Positions 2,501 through 39,684 of a DNA stretch of 64,000 nucleotides are shown piece by piece. Every line of letters begins with the position of its first letter. Within the stretch, counting starts at the first letter, position 1. The notes under the pieces were generated by a model. The model did no database searches. It had not been told where the DNA came from and saw only the letters and a list, made by a program, of their open reading frames with translations. This DNA is from Raja brachyura (taxonomy: Eukaryota): contig OY740781.1 of assembly GCA_963514005.1 (NCBI GenBank), positions 163,308,001 through 163,372,000 on the forward strand, read 5' to 3'. The position numbers and the translations under genes are program-made.

Positions 2501-3510
2501 ATTAGTATATGGTGTAAGTTCATTTTCCTTCCCTTAGCTAGGGATGTTTCCCCTCTGTTTTGGGTTTCAGTATCTGACCATATATCCATTGAGCCTTCAT
2601 ATTGCTACTCATTTCCAACATTGCTCGGGGCAATCAGTAATGTTGCTTATCCATCCAGCCACGATTTATAGGGTTAATATCATAAACTGTGTCATCTAAG
2701 GTCATAACTGCGAATGATCTTATTTAGGGTTGGAAACTGTCATTCGGTTGATCAAATAGACAGAACAAAGTGGAAATTGAAACGAGACGATCTCCCGAGT
2801 TCAAGTACACCACATACTACGTATTGGCATATTTTGTTTCCAAAGTCCAGCGTAAGACTTGGGAAAACGATATGATGATCCCAGTGCGCGCCTCTGTAGG
2901 ACTGCGCCCGCAAGATTAAGTATTTCGCTTTGAACAGAAGGGCTTTTTTTTTTCAATTTCGGAAATGCGATCCCGGACGAATGCAAGCGCTTTGCTCGCA
3001 GTGACAGTTACAATATCTGTAGACGTGCTCAGGAAGTGACAGTGGTTGAGTGAAATGCTGAAATATCATCAAAGCTGATGCTGCCGCCTCTGCCTTGAAA
3101 CACCAACATGTCGAAAGATCTGTTCTTTGAGCAACACAGAGCTTATCTTTCGGTCACATAGGTTGCAAATTTGATTAATTTTGTTAAACTGTAATCGTTG
3201 CCAGCGGCAGGACTTTAATCCGGAAATTCTACGATTACAAAGTTCGCACCCTGAGTTGTAAGTCAGGGCCCGGCGCAGTTACGGCGCTGCAGCGGCTGCA
3301 GGTAATGATGGAGCCTTAGAAATGCAGAAAATATTCAACAATTCACGGGGAACAGTAGGAATAAACAGCATTATAATACCGGGCTTGTGAACATCCTGCT
3401 CGCATTAAAACACGCTTAAAGTCAATGACCATGTGCAAGTATGGTTCGTTGCGATGGACATAGGCATCGCTATTGCTCACGATTCTCTAGTAGATTGTAT
3501 GTTTCATGTT

Positions 3511-4096
3511 GTGTAGGAAGGAACTGCAGATGCTGGATGAAACCGAAGATAGACTCAAAATGCTGGAGTAACTCAGCGGGAGAGGCAGCATCTCTGGAGA
3601 GATGGAATAGGTGACCAGGGAAGCAGGGTCTCGACCCGAAACGCCACGTTGTAAAATTGTAAAAATTGTAAAAGTCCTGGACAAGCTAGATGCAGGAAAA
3701 ATGTTAGCAATGTTGGGCGAGTCCAGAACCAGGGGGCCACAGACTTAGAATAAAGGGGAGGCCATTTAAGACTTTTTCACCCAGGGAGTTGTGAATTTGT
3801 GGAATTCCCTGCCACAGAGGGTAGTGGAGGCCAAATCACTGGATGGATTTAAGAGAGAGTTAGATAGAGCTCTAGGGGCTAGTGGAATTAAGGAATATGG
3901 GGAGAAGGCAAGCACGGGTTATTGATTAGGGACGATCAGCCATGATCACAAAGAATGGCGGTGCTGGCTCGAAGGGCCGAATGGCCTCATCCTGCACCTA
4001 TTTTCTATGTTTCTATGGATCTATGCCACCTATTCCCTCTCTCTAGAGATGCTGCCTGACCCGCTGAGTTACTCCAGCATTTTGCATCTATCTTCT
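3511..4096. mobile_element. Palindromic Penelope-like repeat interrupted by a CR1 3' fragment
   Basis: The repeat halves lie at 3511-3647 and 4025-4096. The flanking direct repeat TGTATGTTTCA is at 3496-3506 and 4096-4106. Confidence 0.7.
3652..4016 (+). mobile_element. CR1-clade LINE, 5'-truncated 3' end
   Basis: Close paralogue of 5440-5816 (end of ORF2, 3' UTR GGCTCGAAGGGCCGAATGGCCT, TTCTATGT tail). GCCAC occurs near both junctions (3643-3647, 4025-4029). Confidence 0.9.
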
Positions 4097-4512
4097 GTAT
4101 GTTTCAAGTGTATTACTTCAGTTGGTTGTCGAAAATGAGATGCCAAAACACAATCAATATTCTATTGAGCACGAAAAACAATGTTTCCAAACCGTTCGGA
4201 CTAGGACAAAAGGAGAAAATAAATGCTTGTATTTAGGAATGATTTGATGGCGCTAAGGCTCCTTGTTTAGGTTTAGACACAAAATGCTGGAGTAACTCAG
4301 CGGGACAGACAGCCTCTCTGGAGAGAAGGAATGGGTGACGTTTCGGGTCGAAACCCTTCTTAGGTAGGGCGGATAGATAAATACAGATCGCAGAATATAG
4401 TTCTCAGCACTGTAGTTTAACAGTTACAGAGACAGTCCGCAAAAGTCCAAAGTCCGAAATGGGGTGACGATCTTACGGAAGGGTCGTTCAGAAGCCGGAT
4501 AACATTGGACTG

Positions 4513-5816
4513 GTGAAAGTCGGTGAAATCATTGGACAAAGTCAGCATGGATTTATGAAAGGTAAATCATGTCTGACGAATCTTATAGAATTTTTCGAGG
4601 ATGTAACTAGTAGAGTGGATAAGGGAGAACCAGTGGATGTGTTATATCTGGACTTTCAGAAGGCTTTCGACAAGAGATTAGTATGCAAAGTTGAAGCACA
4701 CGGTATTGGGGGTTCAGTATTGATGTGGATAGAGAAATGGTTTGGAGACAGGAAGCAAAGAATAGGAGTAAACGGGTCCTTTTTAGAATGGCAGGCAGTG
4801 ACTAGTGGGGTACCGCAAGGCTCGGTGCTGGGACCCCAGCTATTTACAATATATATTAATGATTTAGACGAGGGAATTGAATGCAACATCTCCAAGTTTG
4901 CGGATGACACGAAGCTGGGGGGCAGTTTTAGCTGTGAGGAGGATGCTAGGAGGCTGCAAGGTGACTTGGATAGGTTGGGTGAGTGGGCAAATGCATGGCA
5001 GATGCAGTACAATGTGGATAAATGTGAGGTTCTCCACTTTGGTGGCAAAAACAGGAAAGTAGACTATTATTTGAATGGTGGCCGATTAGGAAATGGGGAG
5101 ATGCAACGAGACCTGGGTGTCATGGTACACCAGTCATTGAAAGCAGGCAGTGAAGAAAGCGAATGGTATGTAAGCATAGCAAAAGGATTTGAGTATAGGA
5201 GCAGGGAGGTTCTACTGCAGTTGTATTGGGTCTTGGTGAGAACACACCTGGAGTATTGCGTACAGTTTTGGTCTCCTAATCTGACAGACATTCTTGCCAT
5301 AGAAGGAGTACAGAGAAGGTTCACCAGACTGATTCCTGGGATGCCAGGACTTTCATATGAAGAAAGACTGGATAGACTCGGCATGTACTCGCTTGAATTT
5401 AGAAGATTGAGGGTGGATCTTATAGAAACTTACAAAATTCTTAAGGGGTTGGACAGGCTAGATGCAGGAAGATTGTTCCCGGTGTTGGGGCAGTCCAGAA
5501 CGAGGGGTCACAGTTTAAGGATAAGGGGGAAGTCTTGTAGGACCGAGATGAGAAAAACATTTTTCACACAGAGAGTGGTGAGTCTCTGGAATTCTCTGTC
5601 ACAGAAGGTAGTTGAGGCCAGTTCATTGGCTATATTTAAGAAGGAGTTAGATGTGGCCCTTGGGGCTAAGGGGATCAGGGGGTATGGAGAGAAGGCAGGT
5701 ACAGGGTACTGAGTTGGATGATCAGCCATGATCATATTGAATGGCGGTGCAGGCTCGAAGGGCCGAATGGCCTACTCCTGCACCTATTTTCTATGTTTCT
5801 ATGTTTCTATGTTTCT
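4513..5816 (+). mobile_element. CR1-clade LINE, 5'-truncated (RT domain plus 3' UTR)
   Basis: ORF 4513-5712 has QHGFMKGKSCLTNL, YLDFQKAFDK, GVPQGSVLGP and KFADDTK RT motifs and the CR1 C-terminus. It ends in a (TTCTATGT)n tail. No endonuclease domain is present. Confidence 0.95.
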
Positions 5817-9140: not shown

Positions 9141-10220
9141 TTATTCGAGGACATCCCCACGTTCTTGCCCTGCGCTCAGCACGGCCTCCGCGAACTGTAG
9201 GGGAGCAGCAACAGGCTTATTGTAGAATCACTGGAACACAGCTTCATTCGCCCATCCTGCTGTGGCGAGAATATGGTCCATGGGCACCTCCATGACCCTC
9301 GCCGCCGACGTCGATGCAGCCCTGGTGGAATGAGACTTGAACACATTAGTGTCAATACCTGACTTACCCAAGACGACCCAGAGCCACCTGGATATCATCT
9401 GGACTGTCACTCGATGGTGAGGTCTCTTGTGAGTGACAAGCAGGTATTTCTCCATTCCTCGGATGCGTTCCGTCACCTTGACATAGTGGCGGATATGGGC
9501 GGCTAAACATAGCCTAGCATTGGCGGGGTATGCCGGGAACTTCAGCTGCAGCCCTGTGCACCCAGGTCTATGCTGCTTTAGTAGCTCATCAATAAAGAAG
9601 ACTACTTCTCCAGGGGTAGAGATCATTTTGTCGACGCGGAGTTTATGTAGCGTCTGTACCCTCTGTGCTGAAGTCAGTGCTAGTAACATCACCAATTTCA
9701 TGGTGAGTTTGTCCAGCTGTAGCCCTTGCATGGGCGACCACGACCTGAGCAGGGTTAGTACATCCCTGACATCCCAGGTGATGTTATAGCGTGGTGTAGG
9801 CGGATTCATATTAAATAAACCCCGCATGAGTCTGGACACTAGCCTGTCGGATCCTACCTCAATCTTGAGGTAGAATGACAACGCACTTCTGTCGCTGTTG
9901 ATGGCACTGTAGCTTAAGTGTTCATCATGGTGCAACCCCGCGAGGAATTCCAGGACGTCAGCTATGGATGCATCGTCATAGGTGATGCGAGAGCGGCTAC
10001 AGTAGGCTTCCCATTTCCTGATGTGGGAAAGGTATCTTCGCCTGGTCGACTCTCGGCATGGCGCTCCAATGGTATCCATGGTTCCAGTTGAGAGGCCATA
10101 CTGCAGCAATGGCCTGGTTAGAACCTGCAAGCCAATAAATTTAAGTAGCGATGGCAGGGATGTGGCTCCCCTGACACAGGGTGAGTAACCAATTGTGGGC
10201 AACCCTCCAAGAGGACCCAA
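9141..10220 (-). pseudogene. DIRS tyrosine recombinase with premature stop
   Basis: Motifs LLALTSAQRVQTL, HSTRAASTS and AGW are present. An in-frame TGA at 9228-9230 precedes FYNKP (the expected catalytic Tyr), and the frame continues to TAA at 9141-9143. Confidence 0.92.
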
Positions 10221-12045
10221 GGCTGACTGATCATGTCAAAGACCACCGGATACCATGGCTGCGTGGGCCAGTCGGGTATAATAAGAATGCCTTTGGCAGC
10301 ATCCATCTGGATCTTGCGCAATACCCGACTGATGAGGCAAAACGGGGGGAATGCATAGAAAAACCACTTCCCCCAGTCGAGCGAGAATGCATCCATCGCC
10401 ATTGCCCAGGATCTGGTTCCCATGAAACGTATGTTGGTACCTGATGGTTCAACCATGACGCAAAGGGGTCAATAGCTGGTTGACCAAATTTGGCTGTAAT
10501 TTTGGAAAAAAATTGAGGATGCAACATCCATTCGATGTTGTCATTAAACTTGCGTGACCTGGTGTCCGCCACAGTATTGAGCTCACCTGGTAAATAGGTA
10601 GCTGAAATCCAAAGATTTCTGTCAATGCACCAGAGCCAAATTGTATTAGCCAATTCATCACATGAAATCGACCTGGTACCTCCCATATGGTTTAAATATG
10701 CCACCGCAGTGGTATTGTCTATTTGGACATGGACATGAGCATCAACAAGATGGGAACAATAAGCTCAAAGTCCGTGAAACGCTGCAAGCAGCTCCAAATA
10801 GTTTATCCCGTGTGACAACAACATGGTAGACTCAAGGGTGTCCCATCTGCCCCCACAACTAGAACAGTTATCCGTAGCTCCCCAGCCATAGGAGCTTGCA
10901 TCGGTTTGCAAGTACACCATCGGATTGGGCACAATAATGGGTTTGAATGAGCTACTGATATGGAGCACCCACCATTGTAACTCAATTTGAGCTTTAGAAG
11001 GCAGCCGCATTGGTCTATCAAAATGACCAGCGTTCCGCTTTAACGCGGAGATCTTGGCTCTTTGCAAATTTTGATAATGCAAAGGCCCGTATTGGGCTGC
11101 TGGAAACAATGCTACGATTTTACCAATCACCTTAGCTGTTTGTCGAATTGATGGTGTACTGGCGCAGGCCAAATCCTGACATGCTTGGGTGACATCCCCA
11201 ACCTTATTAGTCGGTATGGTGGCCCTCATGCAATTGGAATCCACCGTGAACCCCAGATAATCCATGACCTGGGAAGTGCAGAACTTGGACTTGTCTGGAT
11301 GGACAATAAACCCCAGCCGCTGAAAAATCGCGACAGTGGCTGAAACTCCCCATTCAGCTGCCTCCAGGGTTTTGCCAATAATCAGGATATCATCCAAATA
11401 GGCCATTACGATATGCTGCTGCATTCGTAACTGGGCCATAATAGGTTTTAACAATTTAGTAAATAGTCTAGGGGCTGTAGTAAGCCCATTTGGCAAAGCC
11501 CTGTATTGCCAGAGCTGACCCATCCAAACAAATTTTAAGAACTTCCGGTGATGTTTCCGAATGGATACAGAATAGTACGCATCTTTTAAATCAATGCATG
11601 CCATAAAGCAGCCATGCGAAATCAAAGATTTGGCTGTCTCAAAAGTGTCCATTTTAAAATGGGTGTATGTTAAAAAAGTATTCAGATGGGTCAGATCAAT
11701 AATCAGTCGACAACCTCCATCCTTTTTCGGTCTGGTGAAGATATTGGAGACAAATTCAATTGGCTCGTGCATAGTTTTTTCTATCACGCCTTTTTGTTCT
11801 AACCACAAAATCTCAGCAGAGCCTGCTGCCTATTCAACAGCAGACAGCGTAAACTTCCGATTAGGCATATGCTGGGATGGAGGAATGTCCCCGTTAATAA
11901 ACTCAATAGCATGACCCCGAATACTCTGTAAAATAAACTCATTGGAAGTAATAGTCCCCCATGCCCCAGAAAAGAAACAGAGGCGCCCACCAACATGTGA
12001 CGTTAAAGGAACAGAGAAATGAAAACCAGACCGCCACACCTCCAT
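10118..12045 (-). pseudogene. DIRS reverse transcriptase / RNase H / methyltransferase-like ORF, disrupted
   Basis: RT motifs IDLKDAYY, LPNGLTTAPRLFTK and YLDD; RNase H motifs TDASSYGWG, INYLELLA, DNTTAV and NTVAD; MT-like motifs IDPFAS and YAFPPF. In-frame stops at 11830-11832 and 10765-10767, and a frameshift near 10405. Confidence 0.93.
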
Positions 12046-12047
12046 GG

Positions 12048-13793
12048 TTACCGGCGGTCCCTGACATGTTTGGTTGGTCGTGGAGGTGCTGGGTTGGGCT
12101 GATAGTGTGGTGTCTTCATTTTCCACTGGGGCCGCTGCGGACCTGGCCCTAAAAAAGTCTGCTGCTGCTGGGCCTGTTGATAGCGAGGCGGAGCCGAAGT
12201 ATAAGTTCTGGTTGATGTGGCAACCGGGCCTCGTGGCCGGGCAAGTGGAGCTTTCGGGGCCGACGGTCTGGGGGCGATCTGCGACCGCATGAGTCGCACC
12301 GTCTTGGCATGCTCGTCGAGCTCTTTGACCCTCTTTGGGAGGTCTTCTCCGAAGAGCTGTCGGGGCGGCGGTGGCGGCGGTGGTTTGCACAATCCAGCAA
12401 ACTTCGGGTTGAGTGACGGGCGGATGCTGTGTTTACGAAAGGCATTTATCTCATGTTGGGTGGCACATAACAGTGCCAGTGCATCCTCCTGGTCTAGATT
12501 TAGATCTTCCCCGTCGACCGACCGCGCAAAGGCGGTAATACCGGCCGTGAGGAGCTTCAGGATCCGCTGGAGTTTCAACTCCTGATGATGGATAGCCACG
12601 CCGATGTTGCCCCATATGGGCGTATTGACCACAGGCACATTGAGGGCATTGCAGTTAGACGGAGCCTTGTGGCGATGGATAGCCTGAGAGAGGACTTCCT
12701 CCTGGAGCTGATGGTTTGTGAGGAAGTCCACAGTGGCAGCCAGTTTGGGGTTGAGAGGAAGCCCAGTCATGTGTGGAGCAGCGAACTTCGCCGCCACATC
12801 GAGAAGTTCTTCCGGCGGCAATTCCGACGGAGGTGGTGTAGGGTCGACAAATCCTTCCTCGTCTGGCTGTTCGAGGCTGGCGATGGAAGCTGGTGAGACT
12901 GCCCTGTGCCTGTCGATGCTGGATGCTTGCTGCTGTTGGCTGTGTAGCAGAAGCTCCAGTAGCCGCTCCATGCGGTCAATATGCCCACCACCCTGAACAC
13001 TCGGGTGGTCGGAGTCCTCCGGCTCAGAAATATTGCCGGGGCTCCTCTCATCGGCCCGCACCTCGTCGAGGCGATCTCGGTGCCGGTAGTTGTCGCTGCC
13101 AGCCGCCGAAGCGAAACCGCGCGATTCCCGCGCGGAAGATGTGTTCAACCGCCTCCGTTTAGCGGGAGCGGAAGCCGCTGCCACGGAGGGCAAATGCGGC
13201 GGGGAGTCGGCACCAGCCGGAGCATGGAGACCCGACGCCCACGCGGGCTTGCCGGCTGCCCACATCGTGGACCTTGCCGACGCATGGTCTCGTCCTCCCA
13301 TCCATGGGGGACTCGGCGACCGAGGCGGGGCCCTACCCAAACGACCCGTCCCGGCGTCGAGGGTTGGGGGGTGGACACTGGACCTCACAGTGGCCCTGGG
13401 TCCCGCCGTTGAACCAGACCGCAGCTCGGTGGCAGGTAATGCCTTAGCCCCTGAAGGGTTAGGCTTGCGGGCTCCTCCCCTCCCCCTGCTCGGAGGGCTG
13501 AGGGGGGAGGGCCGTGCGGCTGCACGCAACCCCTTGCCCGAGGTCGCCAACGGGCCCGCTGGTGACCTGAATGCTGCAGCAGGGTCTACCTGCTCTGGTG
13601 GCACACCGCAGCCCTGCTCCTCGAACTCCTCCCCGTAGCTGCGGTGTGTTAGCGGGTCCGGACCTGCAGGAACAGGGCTCCCCGGTTTCCCCGCCGTCCT
13701 CCCGGCCCCAGGTGTAGTCGATAATGAGGGCGCCGGGACAGATGGCCGACGACTCCGACCGGACGTCTTTCGGCCCTTCGTACTCCCGTCCAT
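12048..13793 (-). CDS. DIRS ORF1 (gag-like)
   Basis: Long open frame from the first ATG at 13793, directly upstream of RT and inside the element termini. The N-terminus is Pro/Ala/Arg-rich low complexity and the C-terminal half looks helical (PSNC...VPVVNTPIW). The call rests mainly on position. Confidence 0.75.
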   Translation of the reverse strand: MDGSTKGRKTSGRSRRPSVPAPSLSTTPGAGRTAGKPGSPVPAGPDPLTHRSYGEEFEEQGCGVPPEQVDPAAAFRSPAGPLATSGKGLRAAARPSPLSPPSRGRGGARKPNPSGAKALPATELRSGSTAGPRATVRSSVHPPTLDAGTGRLGRAPPRSPSPPWMGGRDHASARSTMWAAGKPAWASGLHAPAGADSPPHLPSVAAASAPAKRRRLNTSSARESRGFASAAGSDNYRHRDRLDEVRADERSPGNISEPEDSDHPSVQGGGHIDRMERLLELLLHSQQQQASSIDRHRAVSPASIASLEQPDEEGFVDPTPPPSELPPEELLDVAAKFAAPHMTGLPLNPKLAATVDFLTNHQLQEEVLSQAIHRHKAPSNCNALNVPVVNTPIWGNIGVAIHHQELKLQRILKLLTAGITAFARSVDGEDLNLDQEDALALLCATQHEINAFRKHSIRPSLNPKFAGLCKPPPPPPPRQLFGEDLPKRVKELDEHAKTVRLMRSQIAPRPSAPKAPLARPRGPVATSTRTYTSAPPRYQQAQQQQTFLGPGPQRPQWKMKTPHYQPNPAPPRPTKHVRDRR

Positions 13794-13993
13794 GTCCTTG
13801 CTGAAAGAGAAATCAAACAACAAGGACCAACCAACTTAAGGTTAGTTTAACTCACCTAAGCGGTCCCTTATGAAGGGCTGGCGGGGAGCGCACCCCACCG
13901 CCAGCCGTCGGCAGCAATGCGTTGCGACGATATGTCGCGCATGCGTACCGGCGGGTTCTTCACGAAGTCACTCACGTGACTCCGAAATGAAAT

Positions 13994-14103: not shown

Positions 14104-14977
14104 AACCATATAACAATTACAGCACGGAAACAGGCCATCTTGGCCCTTCAAGTCCGTGCCGAACAACTTTTCTCCCTTAGTCCCACCTGCCTGCACTCAT
14201 ACCATAACCATCCATACCCTTCTCATCCATAGGCCTATCCAATTTATTTTTAAATGATACCAACGAACCTGCCGCCACCACTTCCACTGGAAGCTCATTC
14301 CACACTGCTACCACTCTCTGAGTAAAGAAGTTCCCCCTCATGTTACCCCTAAACCTCTGTCCCTTAATTCTAAAGTCATGTCCTCTTGTTTGAATCTTCC
14401 CTATTCTCAAAGGGAAAAGCTTGTCCACATCAACTCTGTCTATCCCTCTCATCATTTTAAAGACCTCTATCAAGTCCCCCCTTAACCTTCTGCGCTCCAG
14501 AGAATAAAGACCTAACTTATTCAACCTATCTCTGTAATTTAGCTGTTGAAACCCAGGCAACATTCTAGTAAATCTCCTCTGTACCCTCTCTATTTTGTTG
14601 ACATCCTTCCTATAATTGGGCGACCAAAATTGTACACCATACTCCAGATTTGGTCTCACCAATGCCTTGTACAATTTTAACAATACATCCCAGCTTCTAT
14701 ACTCAATGTTCTGATTTATAAAGGCTAGCATACCAAAAGCTTTCTTTGCCACCCTATCTATATGAGATTCCACCTTCAAGGAACTATGCACGGTTATTCC
14801 CAGATCCCTCTGTTCAACTGTATTCTTCAATTCCCTACCGTTTACCATGTACGTCCTATTTTGATTTGCCCTGCCAAGGTGTAGCACCTCACATTTATCA
14901 GCATTAAACTCCATCTGCCATCTTTCAGCCCATTTTTCCAACTGGCCTAAATCACTCTGTAGACTTTGGAAATCCTC
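14104..14977 (-). mobile_element. CR1-clade LINE 3' fragment
   Basis: ORF 14177-14941 (WQMEFNADKCEVLHLG, LYKALVRPNLEY, FFTQRVV) is the CR1 ORF2 C-terminus, followed by the 3' UTR and a TATATGGT-type tail. Confidence 0.93.
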
Positions 14978-15704
14978 TTCAGACCTAATCTATTAGCATT
15001 TCAGCATAACTTGCAGATAAATAAATAGTTACTGATGAATCATAGAAGAGTTTTGCAAAATGAATTCTTCAATCATCAGACCGTTCCTACAATATAGTTA
15101 AATATGATGACTACAGATGGATATGTTTGTTGATTACCGTATGATATGACCAAGGCCAATGTCGCAAATCCCTATGAGCGTGGTTATTAGAAACCACCAG
15201 TATCTGCAGATGCTGATATCTTGAGCAAAACAGTCTTGAGAAACTCCATGCGGCTCAGGCAGCATATGTGGAGGGAATGGGTAGACGATGTATCTGAAGT
15301 AAGTTTATGAGAGCTGCGTGATAGTGAATAGAGATTCAATACGCTTATTTCAGTCTTTTTGAGCAGTGATGAATCATCTATATTAAAACATGTAGCCTGA
15401 ATTCTTGACATGAAAAATTCCAATATAGCTCGAACACACAGAAAGGCAGGTGTGGTCGTCTGGACCTAAATCATATTTTTTTTTTGTGGGGGGGGGGGGG
15501 GGGGGGGGGAGTGCAGTTTATGGGATAAGATGGTTATGAACAATGCTCTTAAAGACACGATAATGCAAAAATATGGTGGTGTAAGATTCGGTGAATTAGC
15601 TAAATATCGCCGTAACAATCTGTGATGACTTTTTTTGAAAGGAAAAGCAAACCTATGCATTCCATTGGCTTTTAGCAATGACCACCCATGCCAGAGATAG
15701 GCAG

Positions 15705-22743: not shown

Positions 22744-23392
22744 CAGATAATAGCACGGAACAGTCGAGACAGAATTCGATTGCGGTATTACCGCCGATCA
22801 CCCATTAGCGGGGATTAACTCTCAGTTACTAGAGGGAGATGCACAGCTATTTTTGAAGTTGTCAAAGTAACAGTCCAATAACGGGAGACACTTATTCACC
22901 ACACTTACTGTGTGGTGCCAATCCATTTATGCTTGTTCCGGGAATGGGCTTCATTAAGTCAATCATTAACAGAACTTCGGAAACATAGATCGAATGCAAC
23001 GGAGAAATGGGTAAAGTAATGCTATTATTGAGCCAAGAAACTGCAGATGCTGGATTATTGAGAACAACACAAAGTGCTGGAGCGGCTCAGCGGGTCAGGC
23101 AGCGTCTGTGGGGGGAATGGACAGGCGAGGATTCCGCTTGGGATCCTTCTTCAGGCTGTTAGGGCCCTGACCCGAACCCTCGGCTGTCCAGTTCCAACCC
23201 CCAGATGCCGCTTATCCAGCTGAGTTCTTCCAGAATGTGTGTTTTTATTTTTATTCTTCTTCTCCGTTTCAGGTAGTGTGGTGGGAAGGGGTGAGGTATG
23301 GCTCGTCTTCTTCTCTATTGTGTGGATTCTAAGGAGCAGCGGAATGCGACACGGCGGTCTATAAACTAATGCGCTCCTTTCATCCTTTCGAT

Positions 23393-23446
23393 GGGGTGGG
23401 AGATTGCAACATTCACGTGGTCCGCCCTGTTTCGACGAATGCAATC
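23393..23446 (+). ncRNA. Predicted minimal HDV-like self-cleaving ribozyme
   Basis: P1 GGGGUGG/CCGCCCU, P2 GAUUGCA/UGCAAUC, P3 ACA/GGU (ACC in the second copy), L3 UUCACGU, UUCG mini-P4 and J4/2 CGAA. Folded by hand; activity untested. Confidence 0.75.
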
Positions 23447-23537
23447 AACCCGGCGTGCACATTCAAATAAGATCAAATATAACAAGTTGTCCTGCAACTT
23501 TACTCTATGCATGCCACACGCAAGAAGAAGAAGAAAA
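23393..23537 (+). mobile_element. Short retroposon (SINE) with 5' HDV-like ribozyme motif and (AAG)n tail
   Basis: Homologous to 38826-38936, with the same 5' start. Flanked by ATCCTTTCG at 23382-23390 and 23540-23548. Confidence 0.8.
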
Positions 23538-23663
23538 ATATCCTTTCGCTAGGATTAAGCGAACTCCCAACAACTGTCTTCAGTAGTCAAGTGCCAAGTG
23601 CACATGTTTACCGAAACGGAACAATTAAATGTTTAAACATAAAAACAAAGAACTGATACCGGT

Positions 23664-23804
23664 CTTCGGGTCTGAAGAAGGGTCTTGACCCGAAACGTCG
23701 CATATCGGAGTCTGAAGAAGGGTCTCGACCCGAAACGTCGCCTATGTCCTTCGCTCCTTAGATGCTGCTGCGCCCGCTGAGTTTCTCCAGCTTTTTGTGC
23801 AACC
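23664..23804 (+). mobile_element. Penelope-like repeat with two tandem hammerhead cores
   Basis: Cores at 23672-23699 and 23712-23739. A 20-bp TSD with 1 mismatch is at 23644-23663 and 23805-23824. Nested in an older minus-strand copy. Confidence 0.8.
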
Positions 23805-32299: not shown

Positions 32300-33627
32300 A
32301 ACAACAATGAAAGGGAGTTTAAAACCGATTACTGGATAGAATGCTCAGTAAGAGGCGACTTCACAGTAAATGTACAGCCAAATTCAACTTACTTTATGCA
32401 AGGTTGCGCAATTACCCTTCAGTAAATTATTCGGCGCATATTTTAAATTGGATGGCGCTGCTGAAAAGACAATGTGGAGACGCTTCATTCAACATTTTTA
32501 ACGCCACCGTGACTCCACAGGAAAGGGAAGTCCTTCGATTCGCCGGCGGCGGAGTGCAAAAATCACATTTAATTTCGCTGGAATAATGAAGATCGCGAGC
32601 CGATAAAGCGAACTAATGGTAAATCGAAAATACCGATTACTAACCGACTTTGTAAATGAATTATCATGTTTGATAACGCTGCCTGGTAACGGCACAGAGA
32701 AAACATCACCGAATCCACTCACAGTGTAAATCAGTCACCGCACAACGTCTTGCTTTTCAACTCAGCAGTGAATTATAAAGTTTGCAATAGCCAAGAGATA
32801 AAATGCCAAGGCTAGAAATCAAAAGACACGCGAACGCCTTCGACTTTCATGCGTATGGCTGTCGCGTTGCAATTGACCATTTTACTTGCATTATTTGGTC
32901 GAGAGCGTGTGTTTGGGTGAGAGTGGGGAGGATCCTTGATGCTGAGGCGGAGGGTGGAGGTGGGGAGAGAGAACGAAGGGAGGGGTGGTGGCGACAAACA
33001 AGAAGTTTAATGACCGTTGTTACCCAATAGTAGATGGCATCGGGTCAAAATAAGTCCCCCCCCCCCCCCCCCTTCCCTCCCCACGCTCTCTCTCTCTCTC
33101 ACCGTGCGCAATGCCTGAGCATTCTGATCTGTGATTTGTTTCCTAATTGACCTAAATAAAGCCCCTGACTGACAAGCTGCTGTGGCCTCGGGCACACGGT
33201 ACCAAACAGAGCAATGAAATCATTGCAAGCAATTCCTTTATTTTCTTGAGTAATCCCATTTGCCACTGTGCCCGTCCAATCCGTGGTATATTCTTTGCAT
33301 GTTAAGCATTTAACTCGCCTGACATTTTAATTTCATCATTACCATTCACAAGCTAACCCCCCCCCCCCCCCCCCCTCCCCACTCCACCCTCCCCCCTTTC
33401 CACTTTCTCCTCGCTGACTGGCGCCGAGAGAACGATGTGTTCGTGCTTATGTTTTTCGGAGGGAGAGCAGTTCGGTCGGCGTTCCTTTTAGGCGCGGTTT
33501 GCTATGATCTCTCGAAGAATCGCCCTCCAGCCAGAAGGAAGGTCCGTCCCCGTCGACTAATCAAAGAGCACGACTCAAAAGACGATTGCTCTGATCTCCA
33601 GTACCTCCATTCACTTACGAGGGTATC
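32300..33627 (+). promoter_or_regulatory. HMX1 upstream / promoter region
   Basis: Repeat-free, CpG-retaining DNA immediately upstream of the ATG, with TAAT/TGACA/CCAAT motifs. The TSS cannot be determined. Confidence 0.45.
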
Positions 33628-33922
33628 ATGCCGGATAAAGTGACGGAGGGTCAGAGCACGCCGCCCGCCAAGGTGTCCTCGTTTTTTATAGAGAATCTAC
33701 TGCGGAGTAATGGGAAGGGAAAGCGGACGGACGGACGGGACGAGAACGCGGAAGACGTCGGCCCCAGACCAAACTGTTTCCACAGCGGGGCGCCTGACAA
33801 CCATTGCAACCAAGGCTGCTGTCAGATATCCGTTCAGGACCTCTGTGTGCACACCTATCCACTCCGAGGAAGCACGTTGCAGTGGTATACACAAGCTCGG
33901 CCGGCATGTCCCAGTCCAAACA
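33628..33922 (+). CDS. HMX1: Homeobox protein HMX1 (NKX5-3), coding exon 1
   Basis: The N-terminus MPDKVTE...AKVSSFFIENLL carries an eh1 motif and resembles HMX1. Phase-1 donor GTAAGT at 33923. Confidence 0.9.
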
Positions 33923-34211
33923 GTAAGTTCATCCTTTTATTGCGGCGGTCATGAACAGCACGAAACGGCAGTCAATCCGTGTCAAGAGGGCCCATCCGCC
34001 GCCGTCCTCGCTCTTCGCCGAGCAGAGTTGAGCCCCTGGCAGAAATAAGACGGTTTTAAGCTTTTCGTCTCTCTTCCCGCTCTTCGCTTAGCGCTTCCTT
34101 CAAGTGTCAGACAGAATGAGTAGAAAATGTTAGCAATGGCCGGAGGCTGAGAAGCAGATTGCGTCGCGGATCCCTTCCATTTCTATCTTAGTGTGACAAA
34201 CCTAGCAGCAG

Positions 34212-34298
34212 GAAGAAGGGTCTCGACCCGAAACGTCGCCTATCTCCTTCGCTCCTTAGATGCTGCTGCACCCGCTGAGTTTCTCCAGCTTTTTGTGT
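34212..34298 (+). mobile_element. Penelope-like short repeat (subfamily B) in the HMX1 intron
   Basis: A 14-bp TSD, AAACCTAGCAGCAG, is at 34198-34211 and 34299-34312. The core is 5'-clipped (GAAGAAGGGTCTCGACCCGAAACGTC). Confidence 0.85.
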
Positions 34299-35077
34299 AA
34301 ACCTAGCAGCAGATCGCATCGGGCGACAGGACTGCAGAATCAGCTCTGTCAGGTTCTTCTGCGTCCATTTGTTGATCACGGGCAATCAAATAAAACGTAG
34401 CAACCACGTTCAGACCAATTGTCTGCACCGCTTCCCTTTATAAAATGACTCAAATCGGTGAAAATCCGACACTAACGTTCTTGCGATTGTCGATAATTAT
34501 CTATAATGCAAAGGCACACTGCCATTTCTCAGAGCATCCGACGTCACTTTCAGCGCTGTGTAAAGGTTGCGGGAAATCGGTGCGGATTTGCTGAGGGAAC
34601 ACGTCGAAGAACATCGTGTCCTTGCGGTGTTTTGTGTTTTTTTAATCCTCCCAATCCTGCACTGCATCAAGGAATTAGAATCTAAATCGTGTTTCTGCTA
34701 CAAAACGGCAAATCTTATTTCTGTGCATTTTACATTAAACCCGCTTAATAATATCAAAACAGATTCCCATTGACGGTATACGCCAACAGTTGGCATAGTG
34801 ATCGGGAGGAATAGGAATTGAAATACATGATTTTTTTGTGTGCATTTATCTGCAGATGTTTAAACTGCAAATTAAACCAAAGTTCAGCTTTCAAAATTAC
34901 TGACGGAAAAGCTTACGCAACATTCGCGATGGCATATAGAATGATATTCAATCATTTTAAACAAAATTGGAGAGTAGATATATTAGTATTCATTGGTGGG
35001 GAGTTAATGTTACTACAATGCAACAACACAACAGCTTACATGTAACTTACACCTACCTATCTCTATTTGTCCCGTAG

Positions 35078-35688
35078 GTCCGAAACAGAGATGTCCAAGT
35101 TCCGAGGAAGAACATTGTTTTTCTCTCACACCCAGTGATCTGGACTCGCCGTCAGTATTGGATAAAGGAAACGGCCCAAAGGCGATCTGCAGACAAGAAG
35201 ATGGCGAGTTGCGGGAGGAAAAGATATCAGAGGCGGAGAGCAAAGAGGCGGCAAAAAGCCAAGCGGACGCTGACCAGAAATCCAGTCGGAAAAAGAAAAC
35301 GCGCACAGTCTTCAGCAGGAGTCAGGTTTTCCAGCTCGAGTCCACATTTGACATGAAACGCTACCTAAGCAGTTCCGAAAGGGCAGGCCTGGCAGCGACG
35401 CTTCACCTGACCGAAACTCAGGTCAAAATCTGGTTTCAAAACCGGAGAAATAAGTGGAAAAGGCAGTTGGCCGCAGACCTGGACGCGGTCAATCTTTCTC
35501 ATAGTGCACAGAGAATCGTGAGAGTTCCCATTTTATATCACGAAAACTCACCACCTGGCGCCTTAAACTTCAGTATGCCGCAAGTGTCGCCTCCTCTGCT
35601 AAGCTTTTCCAGCTCAGTAAGCTATCCGCTCGCAACATTCCCTTCTCCTCTGCCTTTCCTAAGATCACAGATGAGTGGACTTGTTTGA
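35078..35688 (+). CDS. HMX1: Homeobox protein HMX1, coding exon 2 (homeodomain)
   Basis: The acceptor ...TTTGTCCCGTAG ends at 35077 and keeps frame (spliced CDS 906 nt, 301 aa). Homeodomain [35 protein letters not shown]...[15 protein letters not shown] motif [13 protein letters not shown], and C-terminus [11 protein letters not shown]. Confidence 0.95.
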
Positions 35689-38381: not shown

Positions 38382-38825
38382 TATAAAAGTATATACGATG
38401 CGAAGGCTGAAGTCGTGGAAACTGGCTAAACGTGGGGAAGTTCGGTAGGATACTTGTATTCCATAGTATTAACTATTTATGACTACAGATGCAGGTAACT
38501 ATTTATTAAACGCTGTCTGCCAACAAAACGTATAACTCTTCTACATTTAAATAGAAAAGAGCGCAACAATTGATCTGATACCACCTAGTTTAAACCGGTA
38601 ATCATTAAATATTTCCCAATCTCACATCCGCAATTTAGAATGGTAACCATATACACGATAAAGGCCTACTACGTGTATGAAAGTGCAAACAACAGATATT
38701 TTCGTTGTTAAATGCCATAGATCAAAACAGTGACACACATCCGATGTGAGGATTGATTAGAGCGAACCTTTGTAGCGCCAAATGAATGGCAAATATTGAG
38801 AAGAACCTTTGTAATTCACAATGAC

Positions 38826-38936
38826 GGGGTGGAAGATTGCAACCTTCACCTGTTTCGACGTGCACAAACGGAAGATCAAATAGAACAAGTTGTCGAACAA
38901 CTTTAGGCAGTGCACGCCACACGAAAGAAGAAGAAG
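38826..38936 (+). mobile_element. Second, internally deleted copy of the HDV-ribozyme-headed SINE
   Basis: Starts GGGGTGGAAGATTGCAACCTTCAC and ends (AAG)n. A perfect 13-bp TSD, AATTCACAATGAC, is at 38813-38825 and 38937-38949. Confidence 0.85.
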
Positions 38937-39684
38937 AATTCACAATGACCTAGACCTGCACTGGCATTTACAGCGGGGTTTGAAATGCATTAAGTGGGCT
39001 GATCTGCGCAAGGTTATTTTATAAACGTCTGAAATTACCGATTCATAAAATGTGTCCAGACCTTTTGTCTGGATTACTGCGAGTAATCGAGAATGTCATT
39101 TTCATCTGCGGGCAGTCACAATTTAACCGCTTAAATCAAATCTGTTTTACCAAGTTCGTGCACAATTAAATACACCTGATCAAAGTTATCTTTAGGTAGA
39201 ATACGTGCGTACAGGAAATCAGCTAAAATCCAAGTCTTCAGGCTCTGCATTAAACTGATTTAATGCCGACAATATGCCAACATGAGCTGATATTCGAGCA
39301 TTATTCTAACTCTGGCCTTCTCGCTTCATCTCTTCCCACCCAACCTCCGCTGGCACGGAATGAATGAAAAACAAGTTTTGACCATGAACAAAAATAAAGG
39401 ATAAGATTTGTGTATCGTCCCATTTATGTGCACCAAAACGAGATGATGGGAAATGTTATTCAAATTTTGGGCACTGTGGAAAAGTAACGTGACAGCCAAT
39501 TAAAACGCCAAGCTTCTGCGAAATTGGTCTCCGGAAAAGTTTTTAAACAAAAATAATTCCGGAACTTGGTTGGACCATTTCGCCGTTTCTTGCCTGGCTT
39601 AGCTCAGGAATAGCACTCTCCCACCTCATCAAAAGGGGATAGATTTACGTCTCTGGATCTCACTCCAGAGACTCGAATAGTAAA

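Follow-up and report, generated by a model that had tools for sequence, protein, structure and literature searches.

An abundant short retroposon of Raja brachyura built from the two ends of a Vingi-like LINE and headed by a putative P4-less HDV-like ribozyme

A short element without a coding region, about 130 bases long plus its tail, occurs twice in a stretch of 64,000 nucleotides of the Raja brachyura genome (the window; all coordinates below refer to it). In this element a short filler links both ends of a LINE, and we consider it likely that its P4-less HDV-like head cuts the RNA immediately before its first base, G1, giving a template for the LINE enzyme. The initial annotation had described a SINE with a ribozyme head. 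The ribozyme head is retained here, but the term SINE is replaced, as the element is an internally deleted LINE of the SIDE/NARTc type. The features of both copies are given below.

23382..23392 (+), 5′ copy of the 11-bp target-site duplication of copy 1; 10 of 11 bases are identical to 23540-23550; it abuts G1 of the ribozyme
23393..23446 (+), P4-less HDV-like ribozyme head, 54 nt; same plan as the 5′ end of the partner LINE
23393-99 with 23422-28 (+), P1; the first pair is G-U
23402-08 with 23440-46 (+), P2
23409-11 with 23419-21 (+), P3; A-G mismatch at A23411 in copy 1
23412-18 (+), L3, 7 nt
G23429 (+), G available for a one-pair P1.1
23430-35 (+), short loop
C23436 (+), candidate catalytic cytidine, followed by GAA
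23447..23469 (+), remaining LINE-derived 5′ UTR
23452-23461 (+), predicted end-to-end stem, 5′ strand
23470..23486 (+), short filler where the deletion joined the two ends, not found in the LINE
23487..23521 (+), 3′ end derived from the LINE, comprising the final ORF codons, the stop and the 3′ UTR
23506-23515 (+), predicted end-to-end stem, 3′ strand; copy 1 has two changes here
23522..23539 (+), (AAG)n tail and a few extra bases; the LINE has the same tail
23540..23550 (+), 3′ copy of the target-site duplication of copy 1, one mismatch against the 5′ copy
38826..38936 (+), copy 2, subfamily B; two internal deletions destroy the ribozyme fold
38813..38825 and 38937-38949 (+), exact 13-bp target-site duplication of copy 2

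Both window copies are damaged. The sequence check located P1, P2, P3, L3, G23429 and C23436 where the initial annotation had drawn them, and it found the damage described there, namely a P3 mismatch in copy 1 and deletions in copy 2. The family-majority base at position 19, a C in 85 of 88 aligned copies, restores P3. Copy 2 is unable to fold because it lost the 3′ strands of P3 and P2 together with most of that of P1. Flanking duplications, which had also been noted, accompany both copies (11 bp with one mismatch and an exact 13 bp); for copy 1 the proposed start was right, whereas the 11-bp duplication moves the end from 23537 to 23539. The filler contributes to a 7-bp hairpin, the loop base of which varies from one family copy to another.

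The window also contains two tandem NK-type homeobox genes (33595-35688 and 49762-50912, both on the + strand), presumably Hmx-like. Copy 1 is located ~10 kb upstream of the first gene, and copy 2 lies between the two. A decayed retrotransposon with reverse transcriptase (RT) and tyrosine-recombinase domains, which we take to be DIRS-like, occupies 9228-13835 on the − strand, and fragments of CR1-like RT are found at 4468-5712 and 14177-14989. A much commoner repeat with a palindromic end is present in dozens of copies, e.g., at 23662-23740, 2049-2510 and 3510-3615.

A descriptor of the fold, composed after the site was seen and from general HDV rules, had a sole match on both strands of the window, the head of copy 1, with one mismatch located in P3. 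The same descriptor gave 0 matches when run on 3.83 Mb of window sequence resampled at order 1, and 0 in 5.83 Mb of resampled sequence. Rfam searches of the window and six family loci returned nothing relevant at or near the cut-off. When 121 bases of one intact copy were scanned, an HDV family came out as the best of the weak matches, over exactly the 54-nt head, with 14.4 bits against a cut-off of 44 and E = 1. Across a sample of 90 copies anchored in the middle of the element (the first 90 of 100 places listed), P1, P2 and P3 were intact in 54, 61 and 65, respectively, and P1.1 was a single C-G pair in 75. The catalytic-position cytidine stood first in J4/2, with purines after it, in 79 of 88 aligned copies. 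All of P1, P2, P3, P1.1, G1, the cytidine and the following AA were present together in 31/90. P4 is absent: seven bases separate P1 from the catalytic C, versus 21-48 in six sister families. The lineage differences at positions 8, 32 and 45 fall in J1/2, preserve a P1 pair (U-A/U-G) or affect the variable base after the C.

The family consensus retains the pairings and the CGAA cytidine, as the initial annotation had anticipated; the C is the majority base in both subfamilies, and C19 restores P3. Covariation inside the family, put forward there as a check, was not observed, since the copies differ by scattered decay, and their even decay makes a within-family comparison uninformative. The HDV-like fold of the head is instead supported by its conservation across seven families. 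Other LINE families of this group, from the same genome and from metagenome contigs, also start with HDV-like heads, and the RT tree places these families as deeply diverged. We aligned nine heads of seven families, one natural copy each, three of the heads being from the family described here (the rows F1_LINE and F2 are loci L200 and L441). Canonical pairs filled 156 of 161 cells, and changes on both sides of a pair occurred at 15 of 18 positions, including a C-G to U-A change in P1.1. J4/2 reads C-N-R-A in 9/9 heads. As only parsable heads were chosen, the table shows that a shared fold exists, not how frequently it is intact. The family F4 stays outside the table, because the 5′ strand of its P1 was not found, and was used for the end pairing alone.

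Several of these relatives deserve separate mention. At least three more Vingi-like LINE families with HDV-like heads (F2, F3 and F4; L484-L509) reside in the same genome, and the ORF of one locus (L497) is nearly unbroken. In F3, U-A replaces C-G in P1.1, and the 5′ strand of P2 recurs in the 3′ UTR. A second abundant short element of ~190 bases (L510-L529) has duplications, an (AAG)n tail and an HDV-like head that scores 37.2 bits on the CPEB3 ribozyme model; a first look gave 2,630 candidates in the same genome. A third ribozyme-headed short element, of ~165 bases (L416-L433, L501, L505), has both ends of another LINE family, full-length copies of which were found, and its head carries a long P4 and a two-pair P1.1.

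The family is large. Exact matches in the genome numbered 5,627 for a 28-mer of the head, 11,349 for a 20-mer of the middle and 3,606 for a 21-mer of the tail, with 0 matches for each reversed control; such k-mer counts are lower bounds, so that the family has at least 11,349 copies. The initial annotation had predicted that 5′ ends would pile up at G1 and that copies would seldom extend beyond the 5′ G, and this is the pattern we observed. Among the middle-anchored copies, 79/90 align from position 1 or 2. Target duplications of 8-16 bp were found in 63 of the 77 copies with both ends, as compared with 6 of 231 in a control with flanks swapped between copies; 31 of the 63 stop exactly before G1, and 49 of the 63 within one base of it. 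The first 50 tail-anchored places comprised 41 with a head, eight truncated or eroded and one LINE fragment. Upstream flanks are unrelated between copies except at position −1, where 61 of 79 copies carry T or C; positions −6 to −3 show no bias. The preference at −1 may reflect the second cut of the endonuclease or microhomology.

Two subfamilies, A and B, are distinguished at positions 8, 45, 58 and 61 and by the filler. The divergence from the subfamily majority was 6.4% (182/2,824) and 4.6% (243/5,270), in a sample that the exact-match anchor skews towards young copies. Conservation of the head does not exceed that of the tail part (divergence of 6.5% vs 4.6% in A, 4.3% vs 4.6% in B), which is expected if insertions decay neutrally. 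At one locus (L062, near 1380-1520) the deletion junction is different and more of the LINE 5′ UTR is retained, which shows a repeated origin of the short form. Contigs from sequencing runs under several organism codes also contain the element with its subfamily variants.

A partner of the Ingi/Vingi or RTE type sharing both ends had been predicted, and a LINE with both ends was found. One tail-anchored locus (L075) runs upstream into coding sequence, and walking in the 5′ direction led to a LINE of little over 3 kb. Twenty LINE loci were fetched, none of which has an intact ORF; their pieces match AP-endonuclease and RT families, with no RNase H in the 7/7 pieces scanned. The ORF ends in a Cys/His knuckle, and its stop lies just ahead of the shared tail. 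Among the matches listed, the closest database protein has 1,019 amino acids, 75% identity, and endonuclease and RT domains only; no RNase H family appeared among the 120 homologues listed. These features fit a single-ORF, Vingi-like LINE. We use the wording "Vingi-like" because RTE elements, also single-ORF and without RNase H, share this architecture and the RT tree was drawn without named references; the C-terminal knuckle presumably favours Ingi/Vingi over RTE. Vingi is described as having no RNase H, unlike Ingi (PMC13708176). A search of the PDB returned only L1, R2 and group II intron RTs, and a cluster look-up gave no element names. No relatives of the LINE protein were found in viral contigs; eight contigs from prokaryotic bins matched it, and no ribozyme head was found in these.

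Positions 1-77 of the short element align with the 5′ end of the LINE and 95-139 with its 3′ end, where 43 of 45 aligned bases are identical to those of one LINE copy (L145). The LINE head has the same 54-nt P4-less fold, with a U-A pair in P1 (U-G in the short element) in 13 of 14 heads, and C44, A46 and A47 are retained in all 14. In one full-length LINE (L183), the duplication ends before the same G1. Truncation 4-17 bases inside the head is the rule among the LINE copies, and three of 14 reach position 1-2, as judged by eye. Judging from these alignments, the ribozyme head is inherited from the LINE and was not acquired by a SINE.

According to the mechanism that we favour, RNA polymerase II would transcribe a source copy, starting either at a host promoter or at one inside the element, and the head would cleave itself before G1 using the J4/2 cytidine. 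The cleaved ribozyme would stay as a stable, uncapped 5′ end, and the stretch directly after it would pair with the 3′ UTR, joining both ends. The LINE endonuclease/reverse transcriptase would then bind the paired RNA and insert it by target-primed reverse transcription, after which most inserted copies would decay neutrally. The shared ends point to mobilisation in trans by the LINE protein; cleavage and stem formation in vivo are likewise what we infer. We propose that the deleted form out-copied its parent because it packs ribozyme, stem and tail into ~130 bases.

We must also note that a start at G1 alone is no proof of cleavage, since such heads can also be promoters; the 77-nt head of L1Tc/ingi is reported to be both a ribozyme and an internal promoter (PMC4035085). 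The head could thus be an HDV-like descendant that has not cleaved since P4 was lost, with an internal Pol II promoter setting the 5′ end and the fold being protective or protein-binding. This is the sole family of the seven without P4, its P1.1 is one pair, P1 of the short element has two G-U pairs, and a competing nested fold pairs positions 2-5 with 56-59. Moreover, some well-folded SIDER heads of trypanosomes failed to cleave (PMC4035085). What makes this alternative unlikely in our view is that the catalytic C and the purines are kept in every one of the 14 LINE heads and are the majority in both short subfamilies, although the neighbouring base varies, and that P4-less HDV-like ribozymes from elsewhere cleave in vitro (PMC10879173).

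Another possibility is that the ribozyme does cleave, with the RNA arising at a promoter of the element itself or in tandem copies; cleavage would then mainly serve decapping and the shaping of a 5′ end fit for complete insertion, and not release from host read-through transcripts. The dual promoter and ribozyme precedent (PMC4035085), the protection that the HDV fold gives to the 5′ end of R2 templates (PMC13708176) and the almost invariable 5′ completeness of the short copies are in line with it. On the other hand, cleavage leaving G1 requires upstream RNA, and the flanks are unrelated between copies save for the −1 bias. We regard this variant, which departs from the favoured mechanism solely in where transcription starts, as improbable. 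A classical polymerase III SINE, with a head derived from tRNA, 5S or 7SL RNA, has in its favour an A-box-like stretch at position 5 and a B-box-like one at position 37; both are weak, the best matches having 3/11 mismatches each to the consensus. It is rejected as scarcely conceivable: the head is the LINE's own 5′ end and its fold covaries between families, the descriptor had no match in either resampled set, and no tRNA gene was found in 5/5 loci scanned, which agrees with the lack of tRNA A/B boxes in the initial annotation.

A stem between positions 60-69 and 114-123 is predicted for the short element, with ten pairs in subfamily A and nine in subfamily B and in the LINE; the 3′ domain of the short element folds at z = −4.1. 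The idea of such pairing arose from a different complementary pair in one metagenome family and was then tested, using windows that took the 35 bases following P2 and the 40 bases ahead of the tail. The cognate matching of 5′ and 3′ UTRs was the best of 40,320 permutations among eight families, and also the best of 120 among the five families not used in forming the idea. With three other window sizes the cognate arrangement ranked 1, 2 and 2, whereas the signal was lost in 7/7 shifted-window controls (ranks 455-4,681 of 5,040). The counts out of 1,000 dinucleotide shuffles were 3 for F1 (385 for a decayed pair), 16/73 for F2, 215/104 for F3, 0 for F4, 18/38 for F5, 1 for F6, 1/0 for M1, 95 for M2 and 2 for M3, where the two ends of F1, F2, M1 and M2 were taken from different copies. 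The stem is thereby supported in seven of nine families and is not significant in F3, M2 or the decayed F1 pair. On computed pairing energies, the 5′ UTR is thus predicted to pair with its own 3′ UTR, a design that would be common to related elements.

One sister head resembles the mammalian CPEB3 ribozyme. The head of a metagenome copy (L255, 3117-3189) scored 55.6 bits on the Rfam CPEB3 model RF00622, the cut-off of which is 35, and is identical to the Rfam consensus at 35 of 37 consecutive positions through P1. It is located 212 bases upstream of the first conserved ORF motif in a Vingi-like element that encodes an RT; L255, L256 and L259 represent a single insertion found three times. Further scores were 37.2 (L512), 29.8 (L270), 29.7 (L460), 26.0 (L420) and 25.6 bits (L417), and the model gave no score for L236, L231, L243, L253, L276, L301, the L435 head, L405 and L183. 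The head of the skate element shares with CPEB3 the 7-nt L3, the G-U after P1, the CGAA in J4/2 and the one-pair P1.1. It differs in that CPEB3 has P4 and other P1, P2 and P3 sequences, and sister families score on the CPEB3 model while this family does not. Given how freely P1 and P2 vary from family to family, common descent of the L255 head and CPEB3 seems likelier than convergence, though a single copy is a slender basis. The near identity of this one copy suggests that the CPEB3 ribozyme was domesticated from the head of a retroposon. Our literature search, PMC10919898, PMC8233481 and PMC8256844 included, brought up no proposal that CPEB3 stems from Vingi. CPEB3-related sequences in non-mammals (PMC8256844) and traces of Vingi in the human genome (PMC5753468) have been reported.

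A joint reading of these results, which we offer tentatively and hold to be somewhat short of an even chance, is that Vingi-like LINEs share an undescribed build, with an HDV-like ribozyme at base 1 and an adjoining strand that clamps the 3′ UTR and so keeps the two ends of the template together for insertion. The clamp would explain the recurrent hyper-abundant deletions, three of them independent in the same genome; the 54-nt head would be active and intact in thousands of copies, and the CPEB3 ribozyme would come from the same group.

Internally deleted LINEs with ribozyme heads are already known. R2 SIDE of Drosophila is one (PMC3414825), and NARTc, RIME and SIDER of trypanosomatids are short non-autonomous LINEs with HDV-like heads (PMC4035085). 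As in those elements, the skate element combines a 5′ ribozyme with the 3′ end of the parent, is non-coding, makes duplications and presumably needs the parent's enzyme. Unlike them, it has a Vingi-like parent without RNase H, a P4-less head of 54 nt versus at least 77 nt, more than 11,000 dispersed copies, an (AAG)n tail and a predicted end-to-end stem. RTE, Ingi, Vingi, and also R2, are named as producers of bipartite derivatives, and the Vingi-1_EE derivatives of hedgehog are cited in the same paper (Kojima 2018, PMC5786205). The internal deletion sparing only both ends of a single-ORF APE-RT LINE is the same in those Vingi and RTE derivatives and here. Vingi is not among the ribozyme-bearing clades listed in that paper, although an older name used there may cover Vingi. 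A review also notes HDV-like ribozymes in some SINEs (PMC6765202).

The minimal P4-less ribozymes drz-Mtgn-1 and theta are ~99% phage-borne, many of them adjoining tRNA genes, and the search described in PMC10879173 reported none in human, mouse and protist genomes. The skate head resembles them in the lack of P4, the short L4 loop, the short J1/2 and the catalytic C that stands first in J4/2. In contrast to theta ribozymes, it belongs to an animal retroposon and not to a phage, and no tRNA gene was found in the five loci scanned. Our literature search, which did not extend to Repbase and Dfam, brought up no animal retroposon described as having a P4-less head. In the same scope, and with part of the search being loose, no report of Vingi UTR pairing was found.

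Pairing between cognate UTRs would provide a testable answer to the question, left open by Kojima 2018 (PMC5786205), of why few LINE clades yield two-ended derivatives. It also bears on Vingi-based gene-insertion tools, the donor RNAs of which carry both UTRs (PMC13708176). The near identity of the L255 head and CPEB3 would give a mammalian ribozyme that has been linked to memory an origin that can be checked. If the skate head is active, minimal HDV-like ribozymes, so far near-exclusively found in phages, would extend to a very abundant animal retroposon. About a third of the sampled copies are still intact and would then, in principle, be able to cut host transcripts that read through them in the sense direction.
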